Positions 25,886-34,680 of a DNA stretch of 64,000 nt are shown piece by piece; position 1 is the stretch's first letter, and each line of letters begins with the position of its first letter. The position numbers and the translations under genes are program-made. The stretch is taken from positions 34,589-98,588 of the forward strand of contig CAZDTP010000003.1 in NCBI GenBank assembly GCA_964508365.1, given 5' to 3'. This DNA comes from an uncultured archaeon. GTDB lineage: Archaea; Asgardarchaeota; Lokiarchaeia; Sigyniarchaeales; SOKP01. The notes beneath the pieces were generated by a model, which ran no database searches, was not told the origin of the DNA, and saw only the letters and a program-made list of their open reading frames with translations.

Positions 25886-27004
25886 TTACTTCTTTAGGAA
25901 ATGTCTATAAATTGTCACATAGTTTTTTACACTTACTACTCTAGGATTACGCCTAAAATTAGAAGGAATAAGAGCACTACAGCGTGAACAGAGTTTTGAA
26001 GTCTGCATCCAATCTTTAAATTCATCAGCGTGGGAAGGATACCTGCAGTTTGGACATACAACTACTCCTCGTCCTCTATCTTCCGGAAGTTTTGGTAATT
26101 TAAAACAAAAGATACACTTGAAATCCTCTAATGTTAAATATGATCCTTTTGGTTTAAATTTGTCAAAATTTTGGATTTTTGAAGTTGATTTAGTTCTAGT
26201 TATATGAGTTGCATTTGATGTTTTTTTTCTAGTGGTTTGCTTTTTTGACGTAGGAGTTATTCTTGATGATTGAGTTCTAGATCTTGTTGTACGAGTAGTT
26301 GCTCTAGTAGAGGGTGTTGGATTAGTTACCCTTGTTGTCCTTACATTCTGTCTCTGTATTGTAGGTGTGGTTAAACTATTAATAGTTCTAGTACGATTTG
26401 CGATGTAATCACGAGTTAATGTAGGTAGTGATGAGCGTGTATTAGTAAATCCAAAAAGTATTACTATTAAAATCGTAGCAATTAATAGCAGCAAGAGATT
26501 TAAGTCTAATGGAAAACTTTCAATAGAACCATAGAAAGTTATCCAATAAGTTAGAATGAAAATAAGAACTGAGATTGATAACATGTACCCTAGCGTTCTC
26601 GCTTTTACTGCCTTTGTTCCAAAGTATATTACATTGTATTTCTTAAAACAACGATATAAAGAGTAAGAACCATACAATATGTAAGGAAAAGCAAAAATTA
26701 GGCTCCATAAACTAAAATATACCCCTCCGAGAAGATTTTCACCCAATACACCTGTATAAAAACCCCATATAGAATAAAAAATTCCCACACATAACGGAAG
26801 AATTACAAAAAATGCAGTATTTTGTGGTGAATTAAACTCACGATGACGTTTTATGTTTTCAAATATTTTTAAAGTGAATATTAACCATAACCCAATTAAT
26901 AACCAAGTAACAAAATTAGAAAAAGAATAGGAGAGTAAACCATGGATTGCACCAATTATTAGAAAAATAGTACATATTATTGTTATAGTTTTATTTCTTG
27001 CCAT
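25886..27004 (-). CDS. Multi-pass membrane protein with a C-terminal RING-like Zn finger (putative E3 ligase)
   Basis: About 6 hydrophobic helices (aa ~6-186), a Thr/Arg/Ser-rich linker, then C-x2-C-x16-C-x2-C-x4-H-x2-E-x3-W-x6-C-x2-C; last gene of the Ub-E1-E2-JAB run. Confidence 0.75.
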   Translation of the reverse strand: MARNKTITIICTIFLIIGAIHGLLSYSFSNFVTWLLIGLWLIFTLKIFENIKRHREFNSPQNTAFFVILPLCVGIFYSIWGFYTGVLGENLLGGVYFSLWSLIFAFPYILYGSYSLYRCFKKYNVIYFGTKAVKARTLGYMLSISVLIFILTYWITFYGSIESFPLDLNLLLLLIATILIVILFGFTNTRSSLPTLTRDYIANRTRTINSLTTPTIQRQNVRTTRVTNPTPSTRATTRTTRSRTQSSRITPTSKKQTTRKKTSNATHITRTKSTSKIQNFDKFKPKGSYLTLEDFKCIFCFKLPKLPEDRGRGVVVCPNCRYPSHADEFKDWMQTSKLCSRCSALIPSNFRRNPRVVSVKNYVTIYRHFLKK

Positions 27005-27036: not shown

Positions 27037-27843
27037 TTATTCATCATATTCTAAATATGCTGGTTTCCCTTCAATAATTGGATTCATGAATTCTAAAATT
27101 TCTGGTAACATTCTCACATCTAAATGGCCCTTAATATCAAAAGGTACCGAGTACCATTTTTTAGTTTTAAAATTTGCACGATAGATCTCAAAACCTACAG
27201 ATTTTCCGTTAATTTGATAAGGATCAATTACTAAAGCTACTGATTTATCCCAAAATTGCTGATATCGCCTTTGAGTCCCTAAGTCTTCTCTAGACATGAA
27301 ACATCCATATGAGGGATGAGAATGATACCATCCACAAATAAATTGCTTACTTTTTACAATATCTTCATATGCTCGAGTAAAATTGTTATAATCTTTAATT
27401 TCAGCATAGACTGCAGTGCCGTGACCCATTGGATATGCATCTTCTAAATATAATATTCCATTGTCATAGCTTCCAGCGAGTAACCCAATCACCTCAACCC
27501 AGTTCTCTTTCCTAATTTTGGAATTCGCATATTTCAACGAATGACTTGAGATCTTTAGGATAGCTTTTACAGTTATTTTTATCTTTGCAGAAATTTTATC
27601 ACTTTTATCACCTTTAGCGATAGTTATTACAGGTTCCATTGGAATTGGTTCTAATTTGGTTTTTATACTTTCTGAATGGTTTAAAGATTTCGCATCAAAA
27701 ATTTCAGCGGTTATTTCTTCCTGTAATTCTTCGAGTTGTAATTCGGTGTATACTTCCTCAAGTATTTCTTTTTTGATCTTTTCCTTTATTTTTTGTTTAA
27801 TTGCATCTCTAATTTTTTCACCATTCTCATCGTTAATTTTCAT
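27037..27843 (-). CDS. JAB1/MPN+ (JAMM) metalloisopeptidase, Rpn11/CSN5-like
   Basis: EVIGLLAG...GWYHSHP...MSREDLGTQ...LVIDP. Confidence 0.93.
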   Translation of the reverse strand: MKINDENGEKIRDAIKQKIKEKIKKEILEEVYTELQLEELQEEITAEIFDAKSLNHSESIKTKLEPIPMEPVITIAKGDKSDKISAKIKITVKAILKISSHSLKYANSKIRKENWVEVIGLLAGSYDNGILYLEDAYPMGHGTAVYAEIKDYNNFTRAYEDIVKSKQFICGWYHSHPSYGCFMSREDLGTQRRYQQFWDKSVALVIDPYQINGKSVGFEIYRANFKTKKWYSVPFDIKGHLDVRMLPEILEFMNPIIEGKPAYLEYDE

Positions 27844-27847
27844 AAAA

Positions 27848-28375
27848 TCACCATTTATCCTTCGCGTATTTCTTTACCAAATTCCTAACTTTTTTTTCAA
27901 AATTTTTCTGATCTTTCATCATCTCAATAGCTGCCTTTTTGTTAAAAACATCAGTTGGATTAACATATTTTCCACGAGTGTTTAACATAGCAATTATTGC
28001 TTGAACAACTGTAACCGCTGTTTTTGAAGGACTCCATCCCCCTTTTTTGCCAGTTAGAGAAGGATCTACTAAAGCTAAGCAGATATTTCTTTGTCCTTTA
28101 TATTCACTTGGCTTTGGCCAAAAGTTTGGATGCCATATCGGAGTATGCAATCTAACAAAAGGAGGCTGATTTGGATATTGAACAGGAAACTTCATTTCTA
28201 ATTTAAACAATCCTCCTGCATAAGCAGTGCCTTTAGGACCTTTAATCGTAACAGCTAAGTGATCGATGCTCTTTTTTTTTGGATTAAATGGCTTTAATTG
28301 GATAATTGTACCTTCCTTTAGCAACTTTTTTAGTCCCGCAAAATCTCGGGAAACTCGACTACTTCTTATACTCAT
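27848..28375 (-). CDS. Ubiquitin-conjugating enzyme E2
   Basis: GPKGTAYAGGLF, FPVQYPNQPP, WHPN, catalytic ICL, WSP. Confidence 0.95.
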   Translation of the reverse strand: MSIRSSRVSRDFAGLKKLLKEGTIIQLKPFNPKKKSIDHLAVTIKGPKGTAYAGGLFKLEMKFPVQYPNQPPFVRLHTPIWHPNFWPKPSEYKGQRNICLALVDPSLTGKKGGWSPSKTAVTVVQAIIAMLNTRGKYVNPTDVFNKKAAIEMMKDQKNFEKKVRNLVKKYAKDKW

Positions 28376-28441: not shown

Positions 28442-29677
28442 TTATTTAAATTTTAAGGTTACATAAATCTCTCCACCTTTAAACCCCGCAACTGTGAGAA
28501 ATTCGTAATTCCTCAAATCGTTTTGTACAAGAGTTTGGTCATTATCTAAAACGACAATATCATTAAAATCTAATAAAGTTAAAACCGGTTCAAATTCAGA
28601 TTCCAATTCATATCCATTTCTTTCTAGTGTTTTAATTAAATTTGTACAAGGTGAAGTACTCTTCATTTTAATGGAAACTCGTCTTACCTTTTTACCGCAC
28701 TGAGAACATTCTGGATTTCTCTTCTTTTCAATGTGGTATAGTTTCATTGTCACAGCATTAAATATCACATAACTTGTAATAGGCTGACCTAATCCTTTAT
28801 GACCCCTTTTCCAATGAAGGATTTTAACCACCTCATGAGATTGTAATGCCGAAATAGTTGCGTTAATTGTAATTATCCCAGGATCGTGGCGATCAATAAT
28901 TTTTACAATATCATCTTCGGTATATTCAGGTAAGAAATTGTGTTTTACAACAAGTTCATTTGCAACTTTTTGAATAAATCTAATATCTTCTACATTTTTA
29001 GGATTTGGATCTGTGTCAAATTTATCTTTAAAGGCCATATCTCCTTTAAAGACACAATGAATTCTTTTTCGAGGGATGCCAACCACCGTGCAAGCTGCCA
29101 TTTCATCACTTTTGAGATCTGGCAATGGATTGCATTCATAACATGCATTTCGATATGGAAATATCGTATATATGTGACCATAATAACCAGAAACCCCTCC
29201 ATCTACTAAAGGTTTTCTGAATCTAATGCATTGAGCGTTTAAATTTAGCCTTGCGTTCATTGAATCAAGACCTCCAATTACAACATCTGCATTATAATAG
29301 AGTGCAGGGTTTAATCTTTCTAAGGATGAATGATACCCTTTAACAATAATATTTGGATTAATTTCGACTAATTTTCTTGCAGCTGCAATTGCTTTGGGTT
29401 CTCCTAACTTTGCGCCCACAAACAGAATTTGACGGTTCAGGTTAGAATGTTCAATTATGTCTAAATCGACAAGATCTATATGACCTACCCCTAACATGGT
29501 TAAGTTTTTAGCAATTTCACATCCTAAACCTCCTACGCCAGCTATTAATACTCTCGACTTTTTTACTAATTTCTGGGACCATCCTTCTAAACGAAATTGA
29601 CGATCGTATAAGTCTCTCTCTTCTTCTGACATTCCCTTTGCAAAAAAATCTGAATTCTTACGCAATATTATCACCAT
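28442..29677 (-). CDS. Ubiquitin-like activating enzyme E1 (UBA3/UBA2-like)
   Basis: YDRQ, GVGGLG, DLDIIEHSNLNRQ, CYEC and CSQC zinc pairs, catalytic ACTVVGIPRKRIHC; likely start TTG a few codons in. Confidence 0.93.
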   Translation of the reverse strand: MVIILRKNSDFFAKGMSEEERDLYDRQFRLEGWSQKLVKKSRVLIAGVGGLGCEIAKNLTMLGVGHIDLVDLDIIEHSNLNRQILFVGAKLGEPKAIAAARKLVEINPNIIVKGYHSSLERLNPALYYNADVVIGGLDSMNARLNLNAQCIRFRKPLVDGGVSGYYGHIYTIFPYRNACYECNPLPDLKSDEMAACTVVGIPRKRIHCVFKGDMAFKDKFDTDPNPKNVEDIRFIQKVANELVVKHNFLPEYTEDDIVKIIDRHDPGIITINATISALQSHEVVKILHWKRGHKGLGQPITSYVIFNAVTMKLYHIEKKRNPECSQCGKKVRRVSIKMKSTSPCTNLIKTLERNGYELESEFEPVLTLLDFNDIVVLDNDQTLVQNDLRNYEFLTVAGFKGGEIYVTLKFK

Positions 29678-29750: not shown

Positions 29751-30086
29751 TTATTTAAAAGTACCCGCTGTGCTTGCAGGGATTAAAAGTATATCGTCGC
29801 CATCATTAACATTATAGTCTTTTAACTGGCTACTCTCATCCATTGTTCTTCCACCAGAAGAAAGATGGAACTCATCTGGATCAAGTCCGAATAGATTTCC
29901 TAATGTTTGTTTGATATCGCTTACGTTATTTGCGTCATTTACAGTTAACTTTTCCTTCTTTTCACCAGGACCAATAGTTGACATGAAATATAAAGTCAAC
30001 TTCTTACCTGTTGAGGGAACTTTGCTTGATGGGGTTTTAGATTTAACTGGTTCTAACTCCTCATCAAAATCTTCATTATAACCCAT
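29751..30086 (-). CDS. Ubiquitin-like protein 1 (acidic N-tail, C-terminus ...STAG-TFK)
   Basis: beta-grasp pattern KLTLYF...VSDIKQTL...FHLSSGGRTMDES..LKDYNVNDGDDILL; first gene of the E1-E2-JAB run. Confidence 0.88.
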   Translation of the reverse strand: MGYNEDFDEELEPVKSKTPSSKVPSTGKKLTLYFMSTIGPGEKKEKLTVNDANNVSDIKQTLGNLFGLDPDEFHLSSGGRTMDESSQLKDYNVNDGDDILLIPASTAGTFK

Positions 30087-30348
30087 TTTAATCGTTTCTC
30101 TTATTTTTTTTTTAAAGTTTTTTTTTTAAACTTAATAATATCAAGTTAAAATGATATTAAAAAACCCATTGGAATGATTTTGAAGTTTTTTGAATTTTTG
30201 TTTAAAATATAAGTATCTACATCAAAAAACCTAATATCATATATTTATAAATTAAATGAATGACTATCAATATATATAAATAGGAAAATATCGTATTAGA
30301 GAGAAGATTTGATTATATAAATCAATTTATTCAACACGTTAAAATCAA

Positions 30349-31032
30349 TTGCTTATGAGCACTCCAGATAACCTTCAATCTATTGTTTGTAATCTAATAA
30401 AGGAATATCTAAAAAAGAAACCTTTCTTTTCAATAGAAGATATTGTAATGTTCATCAGTAATAGGGTAAGAACTAACCCTAATTTGAACAAACGCAGCAT
30501 TGAAATCATCATTAAAAATCTCATTAAAAGAAGAATTCTAATCCCTGGAACTAAATTAATGAAAAATAATATCATCGAGCATCCAATAAGAAATGAAATC
30601 TATAATTATATAAGAAAGAATCCTTCGAATGTTAATGATATAATGAAAGCAATTAATATTGGGAGTAATCAAGCGTTATGGCATTTATCTTGCTTAGAAA
30701 AATTTAGATTTACAAGATCAACAAAAATCGAGAATCAAAGAATAATTTTTGAATATGAATCAAATTCAGATCTAGATGAGTTGTATTACTATTTAAAACA
30801 GGATATTGTACAAGATATTATCAACCTACTGAAAAAAGAAAACACCTCATTTAAAATTACGGAAATTGCTGCCAATTTAAAAAAAAATTACAATACTGTA
30901 AAAAAATATCTTGAAATATTAGGAACTCTGAAAATATTAAAAATTGAAAAAAATAAAAAAAGAGTTTTATTCAGATTAGATCAAGAGAAATATGATAATA
31001 TTAGGAAATCCATTATTGATGGTGAATTATAA
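30349..31032 (+). CDS. Tandem winged-HTH transcriptional regulator
   Basis: RNEIYNYIRKNP...LWHLSCLEKF and ITEIAANLKKNYNTVKKYLEIL; divergent from the Ubl operon. Confidence 0.8.
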   Translation: MLMSTPDNLQSIVCNLIKEYLKKKPFFSIEDIVMFISNRVRTNPNLNKRSIEIIIKNLIKRRILIPGTKLMKNNIIEHPIRNEIYNYIRKNPSNVNDIMKAINIGSNQALWHLSCLEKFRFTRSTKIENQRIIFEYESNSDLDELYYYLKQDIVQDIINLLKKENTSFKITEIAANLKKNYNTVKKYLEILGTLKILKIEKNKKRVLFRLDQEKYDNIRKSIIDGEL

Positions 31033-31111
31033 AATTTACAAAGTTATTCCAATGGAATTTATATTTTGAATTATATATTAGAAAATTAGATAATACTTTA
31101 ATCAAAAAATC

Positions 31112-31900
31112 ATGAAGAAGAAATATAGAGTTTTAAATATCATAACTCTTTATGTTGTTTTCACTTTAATTTATTTGATTTTTTTCATATTCCAAATAGA
31201 GAGTTTACCTTTATTTCTCTTTCTAACTATTGGGAGTGTTGCTGTATTATCTACCAGCACGATCTATACCGTTGTTAAATCTAAAAGCAGTCCAGCGAAG
31301 AGGATAAAAAAAGATAAATATTATCAAAAACCAAAATCAATCAAAAGAATATCGAGTGATTTGATTGAGGATTACTTCGAAGCCATGCCATTAATAGATC
31401 AATACGCTGATACTGATGTATCTTTTGAAAATGTAGAATCAATCGATGATTATATCTTCACTTTTTTCAAACAAGAGGAAGTAGATAAAATCGATTTGTT
31501 AGGGTTTTCAAAAATGGATAAAATCTTTTTTATCAGAGAGATGTTGTATTTTGATGCTGGTGAGAGAAAGCAGCTAATCGAAGATATTTTGAAAAATAAA
31601 GATATAACTGATGAACAGATAAAATACTACCCGCCTTTAAACATAATTGGATTGAATGATAAATTACGCGTTTACATAAGGTCATTAGTCGAACCTGGTG
31701 AGAAGACCAAAATACTCATAATTGAAACCTCCGAATTAATAAGTATAATCAAAGAACAAGTTGGAATTCTATTTGATTATGGTTTAGAAGATTTTTCCCT
31801 ATCCACAGGAGGTTTAATATTAGATGAAACTAAGCAGATAAAGGACTATTTTATTGACGAGGATGACGAAATTGCTTTAATTCCATCAAAAAAAAAATAG
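31112..31900 (+). CDS. Membrane-anchored protein with a C-terminal ubiquitin-like domain lacking a terminal Gly
   Basis: Two N-terminal TM helices; C-terminal RSLVEPGEKTK...LSTGGLILDE...DEDDEIALIPSKKK is paralogous to the two soluble Ubls. Confidence 0.85.
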   Translation: MKKKYRVLNIITLYVVFTLIYLIFFIFQIESLPLFLFLTIGSVAVLSTSTIYTVVKSKSSPAKRIKKDKYYQKPKSIKRISSDLIEDYFEAMPLIDQYADTDVSFENVESIDDYIFTFFKQEEVDKIDLLGFSKMDKIFFIREMLYFDAGERKQLIEDILKNKDITDEQIKYYPPLNIIGLNDKLRVYIRSLVEPGEKTKILIIETSELISIIKEQVGILFDYGLEDFSLSTGGLILDETKQIKDYFIDEDDEIALIPSKKK

Positions 31901-31919
31901 AATTATTTTTTTTATAGTT

Positions 31920-32339
31920 TTATATCCTTTCAATATAACAACCAGCAACACTCGCTGGAATTAATAAAATGTCATCTCCATCATCTACATTGTAATCACT
32001 CAGCGTAGATTCTTCATCCATGGTAACTCCTCCAGAAGACAAATAAAAATCAGATGGATCTAAAGCAAATAAATTCGCTATAGTATCTTTAATATCTCTT
32101 ACCATATTACCCGTGAAGACGGTAAGCTTTTGTTTTTTCTCCCCTGGTCCTATAGTGGATAAAAAAAAAACTGAAATCTTTTTTCCTTCAGAAGAGATTG
32201 TGGGTTCTGGAGTTTTAGATCTAATATCTTCTGTTTGGTCCTTTTTAGACTGATCATCAATATCTTTATCCAAGCTTTCATCAATTTCCTCATCGAATTC
32301 TTCATCGAACTCCTCTTCAAATTCATCGTCAAAATCCAT
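31920..32339 (-). CDS. Ubiquitin-like protein 2 (long acidic N-tail, C-terminus ...SVAG-CYIERI)
   Basis: Core closely matches Ubl1 (STIGPGEKK.KLTV, LSSGG.TMDE, DYNV.DGDDILLIPAS). Confidence 0.88.
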   Translation of the reverse strand: MDFDDEFEEEFDEEFDEEIDESLDKDIDDQSKKDQTEDIRSKTPEPTISSEGKKISVFFLSTIGPGEKKQKLTVFTGNMVRDIKDTIANLFALDPSDFYLSSGGVTMDEESTLSDYNVDDGDDILLIPASVAGCYIERI

Positions 32340-32518
32340 TAGATTAACACCATAAATTTAGATTACTTAATTTTATATTACTTTTAAAAAATAAAGGAAT
32401 TTATGTTATATAAATAGACTTCACAAAACCAAAAAAATTCTTAAATTGAAATTACAAACACTTTAGAATTTGAGTTAATATAATATAATTAATAATTTAC
32501 ATAAGTTTAAGAACTACC

Positions 32519-33622
32519 ATGAAGGATAAACCTATTCCTAAGTATCAAATTCGAGAAAAAACACCCGAAGAGCAACTAGACACCATTCCTAAAACAAAAT
32601 TACTTAAAAAAATTAAGGAAGAAAGAATTAAATTAAATAGAGAAAAAACTGAATGGGAGAGCGTTATTAGCAAAGTTGAAGGTTATCAAGATAATATTCA
32701 AGATTTAGAAAAAAAAAGAAAAGAAAAAGAACTTCAAGTCAGAGACCTTCAAAATCAACACGAAAAACTAAAAAACGATCTAGACAATATGAGAAATGAA
32801 TTAAAAGAAAGTAAAAATAATCTATATGAGAAAGAAAGGGAGTTAGATCAAAAAAATGCTGACTTAGAGCGATATCAAGAGAGATTAGATGGACTAAGAG
32901 ATGAATTAGAGAGTGAGAAGAAAGACTTAGAAAGAGAAAAAGAAAAAGCAAAAGAAAGAATTAAAGAAATTAAAACCAAATTACCCGGAATGGAACGGAG
33001 AGAGAGTGCCTTAGAGAGAACAATTGAAAAGTTGGAAAACAATTTAATGGATTTAAGAAACGAAGGTAAGAGTTTAACGAGAGAAAGAGATAATTTAAAC
33101 AATGAAATCAATAGTTTGAGAAGAGAGATAGTAGATGAAAAAAATCGAATTGATGATGAGAAAAGAAGATTAAAAGATGAAAAAGAAAAGGTTCGCTATA
33201 AGAAAAAAGACTTAAGTCTCAAAGCTCGTGATATTGAAAAAAAAAAAGAGCAATTGGGAAAATTTAAAGAGGATGTAGATCACGATGTAAAAGACTTAGA
33301 AAGAAAGAAAAAAGGGCAAGAAGTAAGATTAAAGGAATTAGATAGGAAGGTACCTAAGGCAGAAGATACTTATTTTTCATTAGAACATAAAATTGGTAAC
33401 TTAGAAAATAAACTGAAAAGCTTAAAAGATGAAATAAAAAAACTGGAAAAGGAAAAATCGAAAATAGAAGACGATAAATTTTCAATTAGAAAGGAGAGGC
33501 AAAGATTAGAAAGTGATAAAGAGAGATTTCTTAAAGAAAAAAGAGATTTTGAAAGAGAATTGAAAAAAACAAAAGAAATCCCAAAATATAAAATCAAATC
33601 AAAAACGCCTTCGAGATATTAA
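32519..33622 (+). CDS. Long coiled-coil protein with repeated terminal motifs
   Basis: About 320 aa of K/E/R/L-rich heptads; IPKYQIREKTP at the N-terminus and IPKYKIKSKTP at the C-terminus; no TM or ATPase motif. Confidence 0.85.
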   Translation: MKDKPIPKYQIREKTPEEQLDTIPKTKLLKKIKEERIKLNREKTEWESVISKVEGYQDNIQDLEKKRKEKELQVRDLQNQHEKLKNDLDNMRNELKESKNNLYEKERELDQKNADLERYQERLDGLRDELESEKKDLEREKEKAKERIKEIKTKLPGMERRESALERTIEKLENNLMDLRNEGKSLTRERDNLNNEINSLRREIVDEKNRIDDEKRRLKDEKEKVRYKKKDLSLKARDIEKKKEQLGKFKEDVDHDVKDLERKKKGQEVRLKELDRKVPKAEDTYFSLEHKIGNLENKLKSLKDEIKKLEKEKSKIEDDKFSIRKERQRLESDKERFLKEKRDFERELKKTKEIPKYKIKSKTPSRY

Positions 33623-33642: not shown

Positions 33643-34680
33643 ATGAAAATTCCAAAAGGAATTGAAGGGGATTACCTTGAAACAAAAGAAAACAACCTTT
33701 TTTTCGATATAAAAGGTTATCACCATCCCCGAGACCGTAGAATTTGTTTTTTAAGATTTTATCCAGATCAAAATGGGGAAAGAATAAAAGAAGGCAAAAA
33801 ATTTAATAAAATCTATTCTTTAGATGAAAGATATTTGAAATTAAGAGAGGAATACCCACAGTATCTTTTTTTTTCAAATGAACTTGATTTAGAGCTTCAG
33901 GGCGTAGAAATTAAAGATATAAAGAAAATTTATACGCCCCGAGAATACTATGATGCATTAAAAATGAGGAATAATTTGTCAGAAATCGAAATCCATTCCA
34001 AAAATTTGTGTGAGTTATTTATTACAGGCGGTTCCATACCAGAAGATGCAATCGGTATTTCTGGTTCCCCCATGATCGGATTAAGTAAAGATGATTCTGA
34101 TATAGATGTAATAATATATGGAACTCGTGCTAGTTTAGAGTTTCAAGATAAATTAAAAACAATACTGCTTACTTCAAACAATTGTAGGGCGTATAACTTA
34201 AGCGAATATAAAACTCATTATAATTGGAGGGTAGGAGGTTCTGGCATTAGTTTCGAGAATTTTTTGAGAAGTGAAAAAAGAAAGTTACATCAAGGAAAAT
34301 TCTATGGAATTGATTTCTTTATACGATATATTAAAAGCCCTAATGATTGGAATGGAACTTTCTACGATTACAAATTCAAGAACTTAGGAAGGATTGAAAT
34401 AAAAGCAAAAATTGTAGATTCAACCGATTCCATTTTTACTCCCTGCTCTTATAAAATTAATGGTATAGAAATCGTAGATAAAAAATTTATTAGAAATGAT
34501 ATAAATTTAAAAGATATTACTGAAATCAACTCATTTCGCGGTAGATTTTGTGAACACGCTAAAGATGGAGAAACTGTGTTAGTTAAAGGAAAACTAGAAG
34601 AAGTAGTTTTCAAAAATAACAAAAAATATCTAAGAATTCTACTTACGGATCAAAAACAAGATATTTTTTGCGTAATATAG
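33643..34680 (+). CDS. Predicted nucleotidyltransferase (Pol-beta-like, COG1665-type)
   Basis: GISGS...SDIDVIIYG, FFDIKGY.HP, SFRGRFCE. Confidence 0.8.
   Translation: MKIPKGIEGDYLETKENNLFFDIKGYHHPRDRRICFLRFYPDQNGERIKEGKKFNKIYSLDERYLKLREEYPQYLFFSNELDLELQGVEIKDIKKIYTPREYYDALKMRNNLSEIEIHSKNLCELFITGGSIPEDAIGISGSPMIGLSKDDSDIDVIIYGTRASLEFQDKLKTILLTSNNCRAYNLSEYKTHYNWRVGGSGISFENFLRSEKRKLHQGKFYGIDFFIRYIKSPNDWNGTFYDYKFKNLGRIEIKAKIVDSTDSIFTPCSYKINGIEIVDKKFIRNDINLKDITEINSFRGRFCEHAKDGETVLVKGKLEEVVFKNNKKYLRILLTDQKQDIFCVI

Follow-up and report, generated by a model that had tools for sequence, protein, structure and literature searches.

A conserved lysine motif shared by ubiquitin-like proteins and a neighboring coiled-coil protein at an Asgard archaeal conjugation operon

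Archaeal ubiquitin-type cascades have been rebuilt in vitro, but their natural substrates are unknown (PMC5654768), and this limits what can be said about the original job of ubiquitylation in the lineage that gave rise to eukaryotes. The locus described here raises the question of whether such a cascade may mark its own targets with a short sequence code. We analyzed a stretch of 64,000 nucleotides (the window) from an uncultured archaeon (Asgardarchaeota; Lokiarchaeia; Sigyniarchaeales; SOKP01; assembly GCA_964508365.1, contig CAZDTP010000003.1, forward-strand positions 34,589 to 98,588), in which genes for two ubiquitin-like proteins (Ubl1, Ubl2) and a coiled-coil protein lie beside an operon encoding an E1-like enzyme, an E2, a JAMM protease and a candidate RING protein (Table 1). 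A preliminary description, made from the sequence alone, had noted the motif [IV]-[KR]-[SE]-K-T-P in both Ubl tails and at both ends of the coiled-coil protein, all in predicted disordered segments. It had inferred that this is the acceptor-lysine or docking consensus of the system, which would make the coiled coil a dedicated substrate and allow Ubl chains, with a phosphosite as alternative.

Table 1. Features of the locus; positions are those of the window
Feature	Positions	Strand	Description	Supporting data
Candidate RING E3	25886-27004	-	Membrane protein with a C-terminal Cys/His zinc domain	Cys/His pattern in the translation; only sub-threshold zinc-ribbon and RING-like Pfam hits; syntenic in all related loci
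JAMM/MPN metalloprotease	27037-27843	-	Rpn11-like	Pfam JAB, E 8.7e-14
E2	27848-28375	-	UBC fold; HPN motif, Cys99, conserved loop insertions flanking the catalytic Cys	Pfam UQ_con, E 7.8e-27; HPN and Cys99 invariant (alignments A1 and A2); nearest solved E2s Ubc15, Ubc13 and UBE2T
E1-like activating enzyme	28442-29677	-		Pfam ThiF, E 2.7e-56
Ubl1	29751-30086	-	111 aa; acidic disordered N-tail, beta-grasp core, C-terminus ...LLIPASTAG plus TFK	Pfam ubiquitin family, E 6.5e-8; AF2 core pLDDT about 90; orthologs in all related loci
Ubl1 second, degenerate copy	30015-30026	-	SKVP, residues 21-24	Reads xK[TVI]P in most orthologs but decays in some
Ubl1 motif	30030-30047	-	VKSKTP, residues 14-19	SKTP invariant in 91 unique tails of close homologs; K17, T18 and P19 invariant in a 42-sequence alignment across classes
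Membrane protein with a C-terminal Ubl domain	31112-31900		Contains VKSKSSP	
Ubl2	31920-32339	-	139 aa; longer acidic tail, same core, C-terminus ...LLIPASVAG plus CYIERI	Pfam ubiquitin family, E 1.4e-5 (25.2 bits, just under the 25.4-bit cutoff); orthologs carry 1-3 xKTP copies
Ubl2 motif	32208-32225	-	IRSKTP, residues 39-44	Conserved as xK[TAS]P in 14 orthologs
Coiled-coil protein	32519-33622	+	367 aa; one long helix with disordered ends, no curated family	Only sub-threshold generic coiled-coil Pfam hits; AF2 helix at 25-352; a coiled-coil gene in 78 of 88 loci with enough flank
Coiled-coil N-end extended motif	32534-32566	+	IPKYQIREKTP; K8, K14 and P16 invariant	K14 0.99 conserved and never Arg among 71 sequences
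Coiled-coil internal copy 1	32969-32986	+	IKTKLP, residues 151-156	I151, K152, K154, P156 and G157 nearly invariant in alignment A5; pLDDT dips at 151-160
Coiled-coil internal copy 2	33338-33355	+	LDRKVP, residues 274-279	L274 0.92, K277 0.93, P279 0.93; variants read KEL.RK[VI]PKAE
Coiled-coil C-end extended motif	33578-33610	+	IPKYKIKSKTP; I359, K362 and P364 invariant	K362 0.99 conserved and never Arg; some relatives carry 2-3 tandem copies

To find out whether the motif is real, we translated the four regions and found all four hexapeptides where they had been described, so that the observation is confirmed. The four copies use different synonymous codons, which indicates that this is not a DNA repeat. 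We next searched a crude proteome of the genome (3722 ORFs, 1.14 M residues) with the pattern [IV][KR][SE]KTP. Six matches were found against 0.43 expected from composition (Poisson p about 6e-6), whereas the tripeptide KTP alone was not enriched genome-wide (182 against 167). The six matches are the four copies of the locus, one copy in a third Ubl paralog (G000:C12:20754-21086; genome, contig, positions) and one hit on contig C96 (NVREKTP in a linker). The latter was rejected as a carrier, since it is missing from all 29 orthologs or paralogs examined, including one at 82% identity, and it was therefore considered a chance hit. As the strict pattern had been defined after the four copies were seen, the conservation data given below weigh more than this count.

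To explore the structural setting, AF2 models were computed. For Ubl1, no structure was obtained for residues 1-28 (pLDDT about 50-65), which were followed by a confident beta-grasp core at 29-103, and the tail was not docked onto the core in cis, which is weak evidence against a docking role. For the coiled-coil protein a single helix was predicted, with ends 1-24 and 353-367 mostly below pLDDT 50 and without secondary structure. Disorder of the Ubl2 tail is inferred from composition and from homology to Ubl1. With its six-residue core, its fixed Lys and Pro and its position as a conserved island within flanks that vary in sequence, tail length and copy number, the motif has the properties of a short linear motif in an intrinsically disordered region.

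Conservation in orthologs and rarity in unrelated proteins had been set beforehand as conditions that could refute the idea, and the motif passed on both counts. Across about 120 related loci and several Asgard classes, the core reads hydrophobic-x-x-K-[T>V/I]-P, which is broader than the consensus in the preliminary description. In the Ubl1 tail, K17, T18 and P19 were conserved on a par with core residues. Ubl tails carry the motif in operons whose E2 is only 58-62% identical, and it was present in 23 of 31 Ubl units among 50%-identity cluster representatives, most often with the Lys 19 residues before the STIGP core motif. Within the tails, the pattern hydrophobic-x-x-[KR]-x-P has Lys at the central position in 361 instances and Arg in one unrelated case. 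In contrast, two residues upstream Lys and Arg exchange freely (182 and 84 times, respectively). Of the 74 lysines of the coiled coil, K14 and K362 are the most conserved. Both Lys codons and all four Thr and Pro codons occur at the motif across orthologs, so that selection acts on the protein. It should be kept in mind that these sequences are related and that instance counts overstate independent events.

The coiled-coil protein carries four copies rather than the two described before, since two conserved internal copies had been missed. To test its association with the operon, we inspected the 88 loci with enough flank. Of the 78 loci with an adjacent coiled coil, 77 carry the motif at both ends. 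Four genomes in which the coiled coil is unlinked keep the motif, and two 100%-complete genomes of a sister genus had no match to the operon-type E2, the Ubl or the coiled coil. In two distant lineages, the operon is followed by a Lys/Pro-rich disordered protein made largely of I-x-x-K-x-P repeats, and a protein whose only feature is the motif fits a substrate. Natural poly-Ubl precursors (P0122, P0123) repeat the unit tail-motif-core-AG, and thus the tail belongs to the mature modifier.

To search for additional carriers, we screened for proteins starting with M-x-x-K-T-P and found six against 0.66 expected, but most of them (named here C5, C82, C28, C17, C18 and C71) were not convincing. The C5 enzyme keeps the sequence only among orthologs at 78-92% identity, which is uninformative, and a 53% paralog lacks it. 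C82 orthologs lack it, C28 has no orthologs in the five genomes searched, C17 is sulfatase-like and C18 is a doubtful ORF. Only the C71 family stands. The VKSKSSP sequence of the membrane protein with a C-terminal Ubl domain is not conserved in its orthologs, and this protein was not regarded as a carrier. Reading PPKY at the N-end of the rod as a WW-binding PPxY motif was rejected because the Tyr is not conserved (PPKT, PPKA, PPKS, PPKH), and a 14-3-3 mode-1 motif was rejected by inspection because the Pro spacing is wrong. Literature searches for the motif, and for Asgard Ubl tails or a coiled-coil partner, found nothing that describes it.

What might the motif do? Most likely, with a probability of about 0.5, it is the attachment code of this E1-E2-RING-JAMM system. 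In this view, the mature Ubl (acidic tail plus core, ending in AG) would be activated by the E1 and passed to the E2, and its C-terminal Gly would be joined to the lysine of the motif, which the flanking hydrophobic residue and the Pro would present in an extended conformation to the E2~Ubl active site or to the E2-E3 pair. The coiled-coil rod, with a copy at each disordered end and possibly two at Pro kinks, would be a dedicated multi-site substrate. The same lysine in the Ubl N-tail would allow chains, and the JAMM protease would reverse the link and trim precursors. Our analysis establishes the motif itself, its enrichment, its deep conservation, the lysine-specific constraint, its disordered setting and its genomic linkage to the operon, whereas modification of the lysine, recognition of the motif by E2 or E3 and the formation of chains are inferred from sequence without any mass spectrometry or biochemistry. 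The interpretation given in the preliminary description is thus only partly supported, and the acceptor and docking readings remain unresolved. The insistence on Lys at the central position fits a function that needs the lysine side chain itself, the unstructured tails of the AF2 models are in line with an accessible site, and the association of the coiled coil with the operon fits a dedicated substrate or partner. The E2 has the HPN motif, Cys99 and conserved Asp residues expected for transfer to lysine, plus invariant loop insertions beside the active site. Complex prediction of the E2 (alignment A2) with the first 40 residues of the coiled coil (alignment A3) gave ipSAE values of 0.26 and 0.27, which are below the 0.32 mark and, in the absence of controls, are counted neither for nor against binding. 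On the other hand, the two internal copies lie inside a helix that AF2 predicts as continuous and may be structural kinks rather than sites.

Lysine invariance would also fit a non-covalent docking motif, and this tentative reading is the main rival. Here, a shared partner (the membrane RING protein, the JAMM protease, the E1, the Ubl core or an unlinked reader domain) would bind the motif and recruit both the Ubl and the coiled-coil scaffold, the lysine would make a specific contact without being modified, and tandem copies would give avidity. The typical short-linear-motif anatomy, often in tandem, is in line with this idea, and so are the extra conserved residues upstream of the coiled-coil copies (P7 and K8, IPK), which suggest an extended interface. 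Moreover, the motif keeps a preferred distance from the Ubl core even in fusion proteins where the tail is an internal linker, which could mean that the tail works in cis with the core, for example in recognition by E1, E2 or the protease. However, binding motifs built on charge usually tolerate Arg, and Lys does not become Arg at the central position although a single base change would suffice. In addition, no candidate reader domain was identified in the conserved core operon.

A different post-translational modification that regulates the Ubl and the rod appears unlikely. T-P is the minimal proline-directed kinase site, Thr is the commonest residue at +1 (322 of 361 tail instances), and an invariant Lys would also suit a lysine methyl- or acetyltransferase. 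However, Thr is replaced by V, I, L, H, R, K, A or Q in about 10% of terminal copies and by non-phosphorylatable residues in both internal copies, and by V in the tail-anchored protein family, which weakens the phosphosite reading; phosphorylation therefore cannot be the conserved function. No kinase or methyltransferase is linked to the locus, and the motif tracks a Ubl-conjugation operon specifically. Even less likely is a purely physical role that no enzyme reads, such as a basic Lys/Pro element binding nucleic acid or membrane like SPKK-type tails, or a hinge or capping element of the rod. The Pro-containing copies inside the rod do look like helix kinks, and the Lys/Pro-rich disordered neighbors in distant lineages resemble basic DNA-binding tails. 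But the flanks are often acidic (EKTPEEQLD in the rod; a long acidic stretch before the Ubl motif), which is unlike nucleic-acid or membrane-binding patches, a charge-based role would tolerate Arg, and the same six residues recur in unrelated proteins only within this system.

A more far-reaching version of the attachment reading, which is possible but less likely than not, is that Asgard archaea have a consensus-directed Ubl conjugation code, hydrophobic-x-x-K-T-P, read at the level of the E2 or the E2-E3 pair, with a dedicated coiled-coil substrate carrying sites at both ends and at kinks and with modifiers that chain through the same site in their tails. Ubl-crosslinked rods could then form a regulated lattice near the membrane-bound RING ligase. 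This would be a SUMO-like logic that arose independently of, or before, the eukaryotic SUMO consensus, and it would supply the first natural substrates for any archaeal ubiquitin-type cascade. At present, a deeply conserved lysine motif shared by the modifier and a co-inherited neighbor supplies a concrete candidate substrate, a candidate attachment code and a candidate chain-forming site. If confirmed, consensus-directed conjugation and tail-linked chains, both hallmarks of SUMO, would be shown to exist in Asgard archaea. If the motif turns out to be a docking site instead, it still defines the first interaction module of this system.

Among known systems, the closest parallel is the SUMO consensus psi-K-x-[DE], which is read directly by the E2 Ubc9, together with Lys11 of SUMO2/3 (Smt3 tail lysines), which is used for chains. 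Both cases involve a short lysine-centered motif with a hydrophobic residue upstream, which lies in disordered segments and occurs in the flexible N-terminal tail of the modifier itself (here in Ubl1, Ubl2, the third paralog and nearly all orthologs) as well as in substrates, which for the present system are putative. An acidic stretch lies near the site in the modifier tail. However, the SUMO sequence pattern itself is not present, since the hydrophobic residue is at -3 rather than -1 and Pro replaces Asp or Glu at +2. The E2 is not specifically related to Ubc9, the modifier ends in AG and not in GG, and acceptor function of the lysine is inferred. The analogy is functional only. The operon of Caldiarchaeum subterraneum (PMC5654768, PMC6043591) likewise combines a Ubl, a ThiF-type E1, a UBC E2, a JAMM protease and a RING-type protein, for which our locus has only a candidate, with the Ubl made as a precursor trimmed at its C-terminus. 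In our locus, ThiF, UQ_con and JAB were all above their Pfam cutoffs. That work states that physiological substrates are unknown and used a Sulfolobus Rad50 surrogate (PMC5654768, section 8), and no tail motif or companion coiled-coil protein is described there. Here, the RING candidate is a multi-pass membrane protein, and the Ubl, whose beta-grasp fold was confirmed by Pfam and the AF2 model, carries an acidic tail with the motif and lacks a C-terminal Gly-Gly, since all orthologs end in [ST]xAG with 0-6 extra residues, that is, a single Gly preceded by Ala. The Asgard ubiquitin-ESCRT interplay (UEV-Vps23 modified at the steadiness box; bioRxiv 10.1101/2023.07.25.550441) also involves an Asgard E1-E2-RING cascade with a proposed natural target encoded in the same genomes, but that system uses a di-glycine ubiquitin and a folded target lysine (K201) recognized through an E3 N-loop, and no linear consensus motif and no coiled-coil partner with terminal motifs is reported. 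Finally, like eukaryotic polyubiquitin precursors, relatives of this Ubl occur as head-to-tail tandem precursors (P0122 with three units, P0123 with two) in which each unit ends in the processing site, but here each unit includes the acidic tail and the lysine motif and ends in AG.

To place the motif in its genomic context, we first inspected the genes that surround it. The locus belongs to a 4.07 Mb, AT-rich Asgard (Promethearchaeota, Loki-type) metagenome-assembled genome (G000), and the positions of the genes and of the related features in other genomes are summarized in the table. The membrane protein with the C-terminal Ubl-like domain gave only a sub-threshold Pfam ubiquitin hit, ends with LIPSKKK without a terminal Gly and its orthologs have no conserved lysine motif. 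It is probably a non-conjugatable Ubl-domain protein. The gene downstream of the coiled-coil gene is conserved within the genus but its product belongs to no Pfam family, and only a faint nucleotidyltransferase-like hit around a G-S...D-x-D stretch was obtained.

Features of the locus and related features elsewhere. Plain numbers are positions in the window (G000:C3:34589-98588); G000:C12 and G000:C71 are other contigs of the same genome; L numbers are the author's labels for loci
Position	Strand	Feature
25886-27004	-	Membrane protein with a C-terminal Cys/His zinc domain (candidate RING)
27037-27843	-	JAMM protease
27848-28375	-	UBC-fold E2
28442-29677	-	ThiF-type E1
29751-30086	-	Ubl1
30349-31032	+	Winged-helix protein
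31112-31900	+	Membrane protein with a C-terminal Ubl-like domain
31920-32339	-	Ubl2
32519-33622	+	Coiled-coil protein (rod), 367 residues
33643-34680	+	Conserved neighbour, 345 residues
G000:C12:20754-21086 (locus L001:8755-9087)	-	Third, stand-alone Ubl paralog, 110 residues
G000:C71:12588-13988 (locus L153:1589-2989)	+	Tail-anchored membrane protein, 466 residues
L134:1137-1787 and L139:651-1307	-	Lys/Pro-rich disordered proteins, 216-218 residues, two distant Asgard lineages
L144:7749-9260	-	ATPase-like protein with a C-terminal Ubl domain
L145:2264-3718	+	ATPase-like protein with a C-terminal Ubl domain
L050:9691-11448	-	ATPase-like protein with a C-terminal Ubl domain
L147:6441-6620	+	N-terminal region of the coiled-coil gene in genome G170 (single 6.04 Mb contig)

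The preliminary description had reported a shared hexapeptide in the tails of both Ubls and at both ends of the coiled-coil protein, and all four copies were recovered where it had placed them. The observation is confirmed and it is stronger than originally stated. To explore whether the motif is enriched, we searched a crude proteome of the whole genome (3722 ORFs, 1.14 M residues) for [IV][KR][SE]KTP and found six matches against 0.43 expected (p about 6e-6). Four of them are located in this locus and one in the third Ubl paralog on contig C12, which sits among unrelated membrane and surface-protein genes, carries VKSKTPASKTP and ends with SSSAG plus IY. The sixth match is located in a linker of a protein encoded on contig C96, but none of 29 orthologs or paralogs keeps it and thus, it is a chance hit. 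The tripeptide KTP alone was not enriched (182 against 167). Since the search pattern was defined after the hits had been seen, we rely mainly on conservation. The four copies use different synonymous codons and across orthologs both Lys codons and all four Thr and Pro codons occur at the motif. These data indicate that selection acts on the protein. In AF2 models, residues 1-28 of Ubl1 and residues 1-24 and 353-367 of the coiled-coil protein are unstructured, whereas the Ubl core (29-103) and the rod (helix 25-352) are predicted with confidence.

To define the degree of conservation, we retrieved the E1/E2 neighbourhood from about 120 related genomes. Within the genus, the whole gene order is kept. 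In other families and classes, the core consists of the zinc-domain protein, JAMM, E2, E1, Ubl and, in many of them, the coiled coil. Close Ubl1 homologs from metagenomes have 91 distinct tails and all of them carry SKTP. In an alignment of 42 sequences spanning classes, K17, T18 and P19 are invariant, like the core residues and the C-terminal IP.S.AG, and operons whose E2 is only 58-62% identical still have tails such as IKSKTPxxSKTP. A profile search of 1.84 billion cluster representatives yielded 31 Ubl units of this family. Of these, 23 carry hydrophobic-x-x-K-x-P within 45 residues before the core, most often with the Lys 19 residues before the STIGP motif, and none has Arg at the lysine position. 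Taken together, the consensus is hydrophobic(-3)-x-x-K(0)-[T>V,I](+1)-P(+2). The Ubl tails carry a second conserved element upstream of the lysine motif, which is an acidic stretch with hydrophobic residues about four apart (F3, D8, E9 and L11 nearly invariant; FDEE repeats in Ubl2) and which could be a separate docking element.

Next, we examined the coiled-coil protein. Among 88 loci with at least 5.5 kb upstream of the E1, the rod is present in 78 and 77 of those have the motif at both ends. Distant versions carry tandem copies with up to three at one end. In genome G170, which carries the operon and a motif-rich rod, the real N-terminus of the coiled-coil gene lies upstream of the first ATG and carries three copies (VKQKTP, IRVKTP, ISSKTP), so that ATG-based gene calls can hide the motif. 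An alignment of 71 rods showed that K14 and K362 are the most conserved of its 74 lysines (0.99, never Arg). In addition, we found two further conserved copies inside the rod, IKTK[LI]PG at 151-157 and L.xK[VI]P at 274-279, which had been missed in the preliminary description. However, AF2 runs a continuous helix through both of them, with a confidence dip at 151-160, and they may be kinks as well as, or instead of, sites. In four genomes in which the rod is not next to the operon, it is encoded elsewhere and keeps the terminal motifs. In contrast, two 100%-complete genomes of a sister genus had no match to the operon-type E2, the Ubl or the rod. Other genes in these loci almost never carry the motif.

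To test whether the central residue must be a lysine, we compared Lys and Arg within the same peptides. Across Ubl tails and rod ends, hydrophobic-x-x-[KR]-x-P has Lys at position 0 in 361 instances and Arg in one unrelated match, whereas position -2 is Lys 182 times and Arg 84 times. An exchange of AAA to AGA requires a single base change and is seen at position -2. Although these sequences are related and the counts do not represent independent events, the contrast within the same peptides argues that the lysine side chain itself is required. Thr is preferred at position +1 (about 89%) but is replaced by V, I, L, H, R, K, A or Q in the remaining instances and by V, I or L in both internal copies. 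This finding argues against phosphorylation as the conserved function, which had been offered as an alternative in the preliminary description.

We next looked for additional carriers of the motif. In two distant lineages, the Lys/Pro-rich disordered protein is encoded just downstream of the zinc-domain gene at the end of the gene cluster. Lys and Pro make up 35-43% of this protein, which consists largely of I-x-x-K-x-P repeats, and no coiled-coil partner was found in those two loci. Outside the locus, the tail-anchored membrane protein starts with MSEKTPK followed by an acidic coiled stretch, and five orthologs at 53-61% identity keep M-[ST]-E-K-[TV]-P-K while the next residues diverge. Some rods start the same way (MKEKTP, MREKTP). 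The tail-anchored protein may be a further carrier of the motif outside the Ubl locus. Among the protein N-termini of the whole genome, six ORFs start with M-x-x-K-T-P against 0.66 expected from position-specific frequencies, but on inspection only the C71 family of the tail-anchored protein looks meaningful, and the others are not conserved, uninformative or doubtful ORFs. In the cluster-representative search, we also found natural head-to-tail poly-Ubl precursors with three (P0122, 372 aa) and two units (P0123, 250 aa). Each unit involves an acidic tail, an IKSKTP-type motif, the core and AG. This supports AG as the processing site and shows that the tail is part of the mature modifier. Moreover, a family of 255-330-residue fusion proteins (P0137, P0138, P0139, P0146, P0168, P0201, P0236) has a CxxC zinc-ribbon-like N-domain, a coiled coil, an acidic linker, the lysine motif and a Ubl core ending in AG, and P0132 has a roadblock-like N-domain instead. 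Here, the motif stays just before the Ubl core. Finally, the ATPase-like proteins of 480-585 residues encoded next to the coiled-coil gene carry a C-terminal Ubl domain of the same family ending in SRAG or STAG, but the Ubl domains of the L144 and L145 proteins lack the tail motif.

The best-supported reading of these data is an acceptor-lysine consensus, to which we assign a probability of about 0.5. In this view, the terminal Gly of the Ubl would be joined to the motif lysine by the E2, with or without the candidate membrane RING protein, the rod would be a multi-site dedicated substrate and the tail lysine would allow chains, as is the case for SUMO2/3 Lys11. The candidate acceptor lysines are K14, K154, K277 and K362 in the rod and K17 and K22 in Ubl1, whose mature form would end at STAG. 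The last Lys or Arg of the Ubl lies far from the AG end, which makes the tryptic remnant long. The E2 has the HPN motif, Cys99 and conserved Asp residues, plus invariant insertions beside the active site that could read the motif, but it is a generic UBC enzyme. The motif, its conservation and the constraint on its lysine follow directly from the sequences, whereas modification of this lysine, reading of the motif by the E2 and formation of Ubl chains are inferred, and no data here show modification. The interpretation put forward in the preliminary description, an acceptor-lysine or docking consensus with the coiled coil as dedicated substrate and with Ubl chains, is partly supported. The main competing scenario, which remains possible but which we consider less likely, is a non-covalent docking motif for a shared partner. 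It is favoured by the extra conserved residues in the rod copies (P7, K8) and by the fixed distance of the motif from the Ubl core. Other modifications of the motif appear unlikely and a purely physical role even more so.

Our literature search did not reveal any paper describing this motif. The operon is of the Caldiarchaeum/Asgard type, for which the physiological substrates are explicitly stated to be unknown (PMC5654768). The Asgard UEV-Vps23 study concerns a di-glycine ubiquitin and a folded target. The logic suggested here resembles the SUMO consensus and tail-linked SUMO chains. However, the sequence pattern differs, the nearest solved relatives of the E2 are Ubc15, Ubc13 and UBE2T but not Ubc9, and the modifier ends in AG rather than GG. 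The relation to the SUMO system is one of analogy and not of membership.
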